Positions 33,747 to 34,455 of a stretch of 64,000 nt of DNA are shown here, in pieces. Source of the DNA: Eledone cirrhosa (lineage: Eukaryota). Below the pieces are notes generated by a model. It did not search any database and was not told where the DNA came from. It saw only the letters and a program-made list of their open reading frames with translations. Location of the stretch: the NCBI GenBank assembly GCA_964016885.1, contig OZ024740.1, forward strand, positions 437,038,001-437,102,000, in the 5' to 3' direction. The first letter of the stretch is position 1. The number at the start of each line of letters is the position of its first letter. A program made the position numbers and the translations under genes.

Positions 33747-33750
<4 letters not shown>

Positions 33751-34455
33751 TAAAACGTGTCTATAGAATCAATCAGATATTAAAATATATACTATTTCTT
33801 CCTCTAATCAGCATAATTAACCATATACATAATCAAATCTAGCAAGCTTTAAGAGTAAATTTTCTAACTGGGAAATCTCCGACAAATAATTGACCGCAGC
33901 CAGTTCGCGTTAACTCCGTTCCATTATTTATCAAATATTTCGGCCGCATGCAGAATCCGATCAAACATACCGTCAACCGCGCGTAATTAGTAGTAAAATT
34001 AAACTTCGAAGAAATGCGCACATACCGTAATTATATCTAGACCATGGTTTCTTCCTTGTTTAGGACATCCAAATGATATGGATTTTCCTGAGTCAGGATT
34101 TTCTTCAGGAGACAAACTCATAAATAGACATTTAATTTCTCGGACAGACCCCGCCAAATTTAGATTCAAAAATGGCTAGGATCGCTATGTAGCTGTGTAC
34201 CAGCCAGAGAGAAAGCGTGTGATTGGTCGCTTACGGCGGGTAGGCATGCTGCTAGAAAGCGCAGCCATATATCGCCAAATTTAATCTCAACCGATAGGGA
34301 GATTATCAAATATAGAGGTTATCACATACATAAAATTTAATTAAATTAAATCAATGATACATATATGTATTGCAACTGTTCACTTTTAAGCTCAATGAAG
34401 AATTAATAAGTTAAAATCAAAAGATCAGAGCATTACATCATAAAACGTGTCTATA
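33747..34455 (-). mobile_element. 690-bp non-coding HHR unit with 19-nt terminal redundancy
   Basis: atcataaaacgtgtctata at 33747 and 34437; flanked by (TA)n. Confidence 0.75.
34034..34114 (-). ncRNA. Hammerhead (family H) with extended stem II
   Basis: tgtctc CTGAAGA aaa-tcct..agga..atcca..tggat..tcct..agga-a GAAA ccatgg TC tagata; palindromic stem III, GUC triplet. Confidence 0.75.

Follow-up and report, generated by a model that had tools for sequence, protein, structure and literature searches.

A 690-nt non-coding repeat unit with a hammerhead motif in a (TA)n tract, probably copied by Penelope-like element enzymes from RNA longer than one unit

The 64 000-nucleotide stretch of DNA analysed here (the window) is AT-rich and microsatellite-rich and harbours, at 33747-34455, an insertion of 709 bases composed of one 690-nt non-coding unit with a GC content of 35% and 13-19 nt of the next upstream unit. 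The TA tract that holds the insert is flanked by copies of another repeat, at 33389-33577 and 34468-34572, both facing inward, and the hammerhead ribozyme (HHR) motif of the insert reads on the minus strand. The following features were delineated.

33747-34455, minus strand: whole insertion, one 690-nt unit plus 13-19 nt (1.03 units)
33747-33765, minus strand: 3' end of the HHR-sense RNA and putative fixed start of reverse transcription, abutting (TA)n; from the loose ends of diverged copies and the right-end depth
33779-34031, minus strand: long, imperfect hairpin predicted on the 3' side of the HHR, with 93 pairs, 20 of them G.U (z -3.85, 60 shuffles)
34034-34114, minus strand: predicted type I hammerhead motif with a long stem II, a 1-bp stem III and a palindromic loop, without the G10.1-C11.1 pair; from a structure-anchored parse
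34039-34040, minus strand: predicted cut site, both flanking bases unlike nearly all other copies (GUA/G in the others, GUC/U here)
34115-34436, minus strand: region 5' of the HHR with CCAAT (34226), E2F-like (34158) and GC-box (34155) words, all weak consensus matches
34437-34455, minus strand: probable leftover of the upstream unit after 5' truncation, the terminal TATA (4 nt) being common to it and the target; from the joint 34436 to 33747
33578-33748, no strand: (TA)/(TG) microsatellite, left part of the target
34452-34467, no strand: (TA)8, right part of the target

The insert begins and ends with exact copies of a 19-nt direct repeat (33747-33765 and 34437-34455), as stated by the first-pass annotation of this DNA, with a period of 690 and no extension possible on either side. 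The 13-nt core of this repeat occurs only twice in the whole 64-kb window, and no exact repeat longer than 14 nt arose in 1000 dinucleotide shuffles of the insert, only one of which had a repeat of that length. The leading AT of the left 19-mer and the trailing TATA of the right one merge into the (TA)n flanks; thus 2 nucleotides at the left end and 4 at the right may belong to the target, and the unambiguous redundancy is 13 nt, the TATA at 34452-34455 that insert and target have in common being a likely microhomology. The insert carries no inverted 5' piece and contains 10 further alternating-TA words. The absence of a credible ORF, also reported at first pass, was borne out by longest ATG ORFs on the circularised unit of 33 (plus strand) and 40 (minus strand) amino acids. 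A self-BLAST of the 64-kb window revealed no second copy of the unit, and tblastn of the unit against 11 window ORFs gave nothing better than an E value of 0.11; the unit shows no trace of a coding remnant.

The repeat on both sides of the insert belongs to a family of about 190 nt that resides in (TA)n, with further copies at 20696, 32715, 44922, 53733 and 57541. The two copies around the insert are 99% identical, and the near-perfect palindromic end of this repeat resembles, by eye, that half of a hammerhead which comprises GAAA and stem III.

A type I hammerhead motif is indeed present at 34034-34114, where one had been proposed, and reads CUGAAGA at 34108-34102 and GAAA at 34051-34048, then GUC, on the minus strand. 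Its descriptor matched two of 2000 shuffles. A plain alignment of six HHRs misplaced the long stem II, and a structure-anchored parse was used instead. Rfam returned no HHR match for the insert at the gathering threshold or at E<=10, probably because of the length of stem II, the region of which spans 50 nt. Stem III is a single base pair, with the loop CAUG inside an 8-nt palindrome, and in the window copy stem I opens with a C.U mismatch. At positions 10.1 and 11.1 of the hammerhead numbering, an unpaired A/A occupies the place where PLE-type HHRs (those of Penelope-like elements) have G10.1-C11.1. The parse covered seven further type I HHRs of the window, each with an A at the end of the cut-site triplet; three of them display a similar unpaired, purine-rich stem II base together with a C-G stem III, as in the 690-nt element. 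Several other HHRs of the window are found a few tens of bases away from TA tracts. The short stem III and palindromic loop are those of the PLE-type HHR described in PMC4209133, whereas the G10.1-C11.1 pair, there called highly conserved, is absent. HHRs with a short palindromic stem III are described in the same source as cleaving poorly as monomers, which suggests that cleavage of the present motif would depend on a dimer.

The predicted RNA of the HHR strand is unusually stable. Relative to shuffled sequences, the linear fold gave z -3.7 (20 shuffles) and, in a second comparison with 12 shuffles, z -2.4 for the linear and z -4.3 for the circular form, the latter 64% paired; the opposite strand gave z +0.9. 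Most of this stability stems from the hairpin at 33779-34031, which is stable on the HHR strand only (z +1.98 for the opposite strand). Twelve of the listed sequence variants fall within 33749-34033, seven at unpaired sites, three preserving a pair and two disrupting one; sequence variation therefore does not clearly support the hairpin, neither confirming nor refuting it. Imposing the HHR on the predicted circular fold costs about 10 kcal/mol. By its promoter-like words, the region at 34115-34436 is a possible internal promoter. The observed/expected CpG ratio is 1.21 in the unit and 0.70 in the window.

Public sequencing data were aligned to the insert in the form of three contig sets from one sample (X1-X3) and one RAD-seq run out of three, from another sample and study (X4). 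The contig sets contain 27-39% of the sampled insert words. Alignments were obtained for 480, 503 and 571 contigs (X1-X3) and for 2,372 of the 12.5 million reads of X4, with 30 of 30 bins covered in each; since every bin is covered in every run, by hundreds of contigs, the 690-nt unit represents a repeated family. Summed contig depths were not taken as copy numbers. Pattern scans of viral contigs, metagenome contigs and prokaryote genomes gave zero matches.

Twelve of the 2,372 aligned X4 reads, with about four different starts, pass through a head-to-tail joint from 34436 back by 690 to 33747, the shorter side measuring up to 57 nt, of which 19 fit either side. This is the sole joint reported by the alignment, its register is the same in other copies, and none was seen in the three contig sets. 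Head-to-tail units with a period of 690 thus exist in DNA and reach past the 19-nt redundancy. Recombination during PCR through the 19-mer is an unlikely origin of these reads, because the parental right ends are rarer than the joints. The first reading had made much of an insert of exactly one unit and a little more; this cannot be upheld as special, since joint reads extend far beyond the 19-mer in either direction and few reads end at the right terminus. Indeed, X4 depth falls to 0.87 over 34443-34457, against 11 over 34419-34442, while 45 X4 reads run over the ends of the stretch (short-overhang junction reads would be counted among them), which identifies the left end as the common terminus. 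In diverged copies the loose ends begin at the same TA/element border on the left, one of them with TATAT (X3; among the 24 listed of 297 loose ends). Other copies thus have in common a left end, the RNA's 3' end, at (TA)n, while the right side continues further. On these limited data, a few contigs and a restriction-biased RAD library, the left end of the family appears to be fixed. The X4 read starts at 33947/33950 and 34245/34248 coincide with GCATGC sites and are presumably restriction cuts of the library, by an enzyme that we take to recognise this site.

These observations bear on two other accounts of the 19-mer. The first, which the first-pass annotation had named as the finding that would overturn its reading, takes the 19-mer for a target-site duplication, its sequence standing once in the empty allele. 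Some animal retrozymes are reported to have long duplications (PMC7229834), but here both flanks are plain (TA)n, family contigs and reads cover the 19-mer and hold a variant of their own at 33757, the 19-mer is also found in diverged copies, and junction reads pass from 34436 through it into the unit. The joint reads and its presence in diverged copies mark the 19-mer as element sequence, and the duplication, largely refuted by the junction reads and the family variant, is hardly credible. According to the second, the family has a fixed full-length form whose transcript would begin at a defined site within the upstream unit, 13-19 nt in, making the redundancy a programmed end of R-like or tail-like type, or else a second, tiny copy has landed at the 5' end of an older monomer. 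PLEs do possess defined tails and tend to land next to copies that were there before them (PMC8557442; PMC6765202), and the unit contains promoter-like words; however, 12 reads continue into the next unit where the depth over 34443-34457 is 0.87, and the joint is found in the same register in other copies. We consider this second account, in either form, very improbable.

The variant figures rest on 40 of the 163 variant rows. At 33757 both window 19-mers (33757 and 34447) have G, against A in 67-88% of other copies. Within the HHR, the base at the first position of stem I (34039) is the pairing one in 93 of 94 X4 reads, GUA is read at 34040 in 84 of 94 and CUGAUGA at 34104 in 104 of 109; the motif is therefore better formed in the family than in the window copy. 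In 14 of the 40 listed rows, 90% or more of the contig depth departs from the window in each of the three contig sets; the organism behind the runs may be a relative of that of the window. The possibility that the window copy is a decayed copy of the main family of the runs was rejected, as 10 of the 12 directional near-fixed differences are AT to GC in the window copy (p 0.02); it is more likely to represent a sister lineage or species.

The insert spans the predicted HHR cut site, with 416 nt on the 5' side of it and 293 nt on the 3' side. A linear ribozyme-cut monomer can thus not have served as template, and the RNA that was copied crossed the cut site either as an uncut multimer or as a ligated circle, two templates that DNA alone cannot separate. 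Together with the joint reads, this upholds two parts of the earlier interpretation, namely a retrozyme-like family and a template that is longer than one unit and crosses the cut site. We consider it likely that the 709-base insert was mobilised by PLE enzymes from uncut RNA longer than one unit, and rather probable that the template itself was an uncut multimer. A 5'-truncated partial tandem, the usual PLE pattern, is the reading that fits the window copy best. In the proposed course of events, a tandem locus would be transcribed on the HHR strand and a PLE protein, for which the Hydra type is the best candidate, would nick (TA)n; reverse transcription would start at a fixed site at the end of the unit, on the 33747 side, copy one full unit across the uncut HHR and halt 13-19 nt into the next unit, where TATA may pair with the target. 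The terminal redundancy would then be a very short pseudo-LTR made by 5' truncation.

Such a course is consistent with published accounts of PLEs. The one PLE protein studied biochemically starts internally at a fixed site, prefers AT-rich DNA and does not need HHR cleavage, uncut RNA being its dominant substrate in vitro (PMC11167929), and 5'-truncated partial tandems are described as the norm for PLEs (PMC8557442). In the window, 28 ORFs scanned against Pfam yielded three reverse transcriptase (RT) matches, one strong and two weak, and three weak GIY-YIG matches; the strong RT match is an AP-endonuclease/RT LINE at 34673-37843. Two PLE ORFs of the window contain a CxCx5C linker, a feature of Hydra-clade PLEs, which carry HHRs and insert in (TA)n (PMC8557442), and HHR-bearing PLEs occur in the window. 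A non-coding 543-nt unit at 27154-28435 is present as two units plus 126 nt (2.2 units) with an inverted 5' piece and ends in (TA)n, and its (TA)n border is also where a shorter relative of 74% identity, at 5776-6087, terminates; the pair illustrates, within the window, a 3' end that is fixed while the overshoot varies. On the other hand, no similarity of the 690-nt unit to any PLE end or protein was found in the 64-kb window, which counts against PLE mobilisation; the PLE helper, and descent from a PLE, are thus putative. The redundancy is also shorter than the 30-40 nt PLE tail, and the fully paired HHR kept in other copies and the stable HHR-strand fold also fit a circle.

A circular template would arise if tandem transcripts cleaved themselves as HHR dimers into 690-nt monomers, which a host ligase would circularise and a PLE reverse transcriptase would copy, from a fixed internal start, once round and 13-19 nt beyond. 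This account, which we regard as possible though rather unlikely, agrees with an insert that runs across the cut site, excluding the linear cut monomer, with the CUGAUGA, GUA and fully paired stem I of other copies and with the well paired circular fold of the HHR strand alone. It would also explain the G present in both 19-mers where most other copies have A, and the change of both bases flanking the cut; RNA circles have been shown for the retrozymes of coral, mussel and axolotl (PMC7229834), and the internal initiation that it would need is seen in a PLE. However, every DNA feature follows equally from a linear multimer, the G common to both 19-mers may mark a subfamily, and the HHR combines a missing G10.1-C11.1 pair and a 1-bp stem III with the energetic cost of forming it in the predicted circular fold; moreover, eight of nine Xenopus retrozyme dimers are reported not to cleave in vitro (10.64898/2026.07.22.740005). 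Copying of more than a unit from circles has already been stated (PMC4209133; PMC7229834), so that the circle invoked at first pass is a published hypothesis, in print since 2014. The test that had been suggested for it, variable permutation points with a constant period, does not discriminate, since a PLE RT with a fixed internal start (PMC11167929) gives a fixed end on a circle and on a linear multimer, and the limited data favour a fixed left end.

Two of the 14 near-fixed differences (among 40 of 163 variant rows) are the bases on either side of the predicted cut, 34040 and 34039. The chance of both being changed is roughly 0.0002-0.002, for a doublet noticed post hoc in a single copy of a lineage other than that of the runs. 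The insert could be the print of an RT that went round a ligated RNA circle, with the changes at 34040/34039 as a scar left on crossing the ligation junction, which we deem improbable; the doublet could alternatively be due to chance, as a 2-nt inversion on the plus strand, or be a difference between lineages. No precedent for RT errors at ligation sites emerged from a brief, thin literature search that included parts of PMC4918200. If the scar were real, circle-derived insertions could be counted from DNA only, and internal initiation by PLEs would be linked to the copying of retrozyme circles; an excess of cut-site errors across copies would, if true, be direct evidence on the nature of the template.

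At the level of the family, the sequence features are those expected of an animal non-LTR retrozyme or non-autonomous PLE. Like the animal non-LTR retrozymes described in PMC7229834 and 10.64898/2026.07.22.740005, the family has a non-coding repeat unit with one type I HHR and a GC content below 50%, no LTRs, head-to-tail joints, monomer copies, a predicted self-paired RNA and PLEs alongside. The unit, at 690 nt, is longer than the 150-450 nt given in 2020 (PMC7229834) but inside the 51-972 nt given in 2026 (10.64898/2026.07.22.740005), and the family differs in its non-canonical HHR, with a 50-nt stem II and no G10.1-C11.1. The window locus is a monomer and hence not 'active' by the two-HHR definition used for animal retrozymes; monomers are frequent among these elements, which are argued to derive from PLE ends (10.64898/2026.07.22.740005). 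The family resembles the non-autonomous PLEs and PLE partial tandems of the Hydra clade and MRC1 of Chlamydomonas (PMC8557442) in its pseudo-LTR from a partial tandem, 5' truncation, apparently fixed 3' end, (TA)n target and HHR with a short palindromic stem III. The (TA)n bias, a feature of Hydra and Naiad, is seen in the window copy and in the loose end of diverged copies in X3. Unlike those elements, the unit has no 3'-end similarity to an autonomous PLE within the 64-kb window, its HHR cut site is separated from the 3' end by 293 nt that include the long predicted hairpin, and no inverted 5' piece is present. Plant LTR retrozymes (PMC4918200) have RNAs of similar size (600-1000 nt) that are likewise non-coding, structured and HHR-bearing, but their HHRs are of type III and sit in two LTRs of about 350 bp, and they have PBS and PPT and 4-bp target-site duplications, whereas the 690-nt element has one type I HHR and no long terminal repeats. 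The family adds one rather long hammerhead-bearing non-autonomous retroelement to a PLE-rich animal genome. Whether a circle or an uncut linear multimer is the template has been an open question since 2014 (PMC4209133), and a family of many copies that has a fixed start and tandem joints, and in which most copies keep a seemingly intact HHR, would be useful for testing it.

Several other elements of the window deserve mention. The LINE at 34673-37843 (minus strand) has an open frame of 1056 amino acids, and its 3' end also adjoins a (TA)n tract. A frame of 1005 amino acids is open at 9130-12147 (minus strand); its DNA is 95% identical to a broken RT and GIY-YIG element at 45669-47863, and, although without a Pfam match at E 0.01, it is likely to be an intact PLE. 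Frameshifted PLE-like ORFs (50005-51647) lie within 49683-53075 between inverted and direct terminal repeats, each with an HHR. By eye, the 543-nt unit shows a CUGAUGA core and a stem II without GAAA, possibly a variant or dead HHR. A fold-back pair of HHRs (55637, minus strand; 55687, plus strand) at 55566-55758, with a third copy at 40839-40933, has an unpaired stem II base like that of the 690-nt element. A tRNA-derived element at 48341-48994 is partly in tandem and partly inverted, its two tRNA-like copies being called Leu(CAA) and Ser(CGA). Finally, another (TA)n-associated repeat family (55304-55461, 6579-6802, 57703-58192 and 61031-61245) displays, by eye, a minimal CUGAUGA...GAAAC core and fold-back ends.
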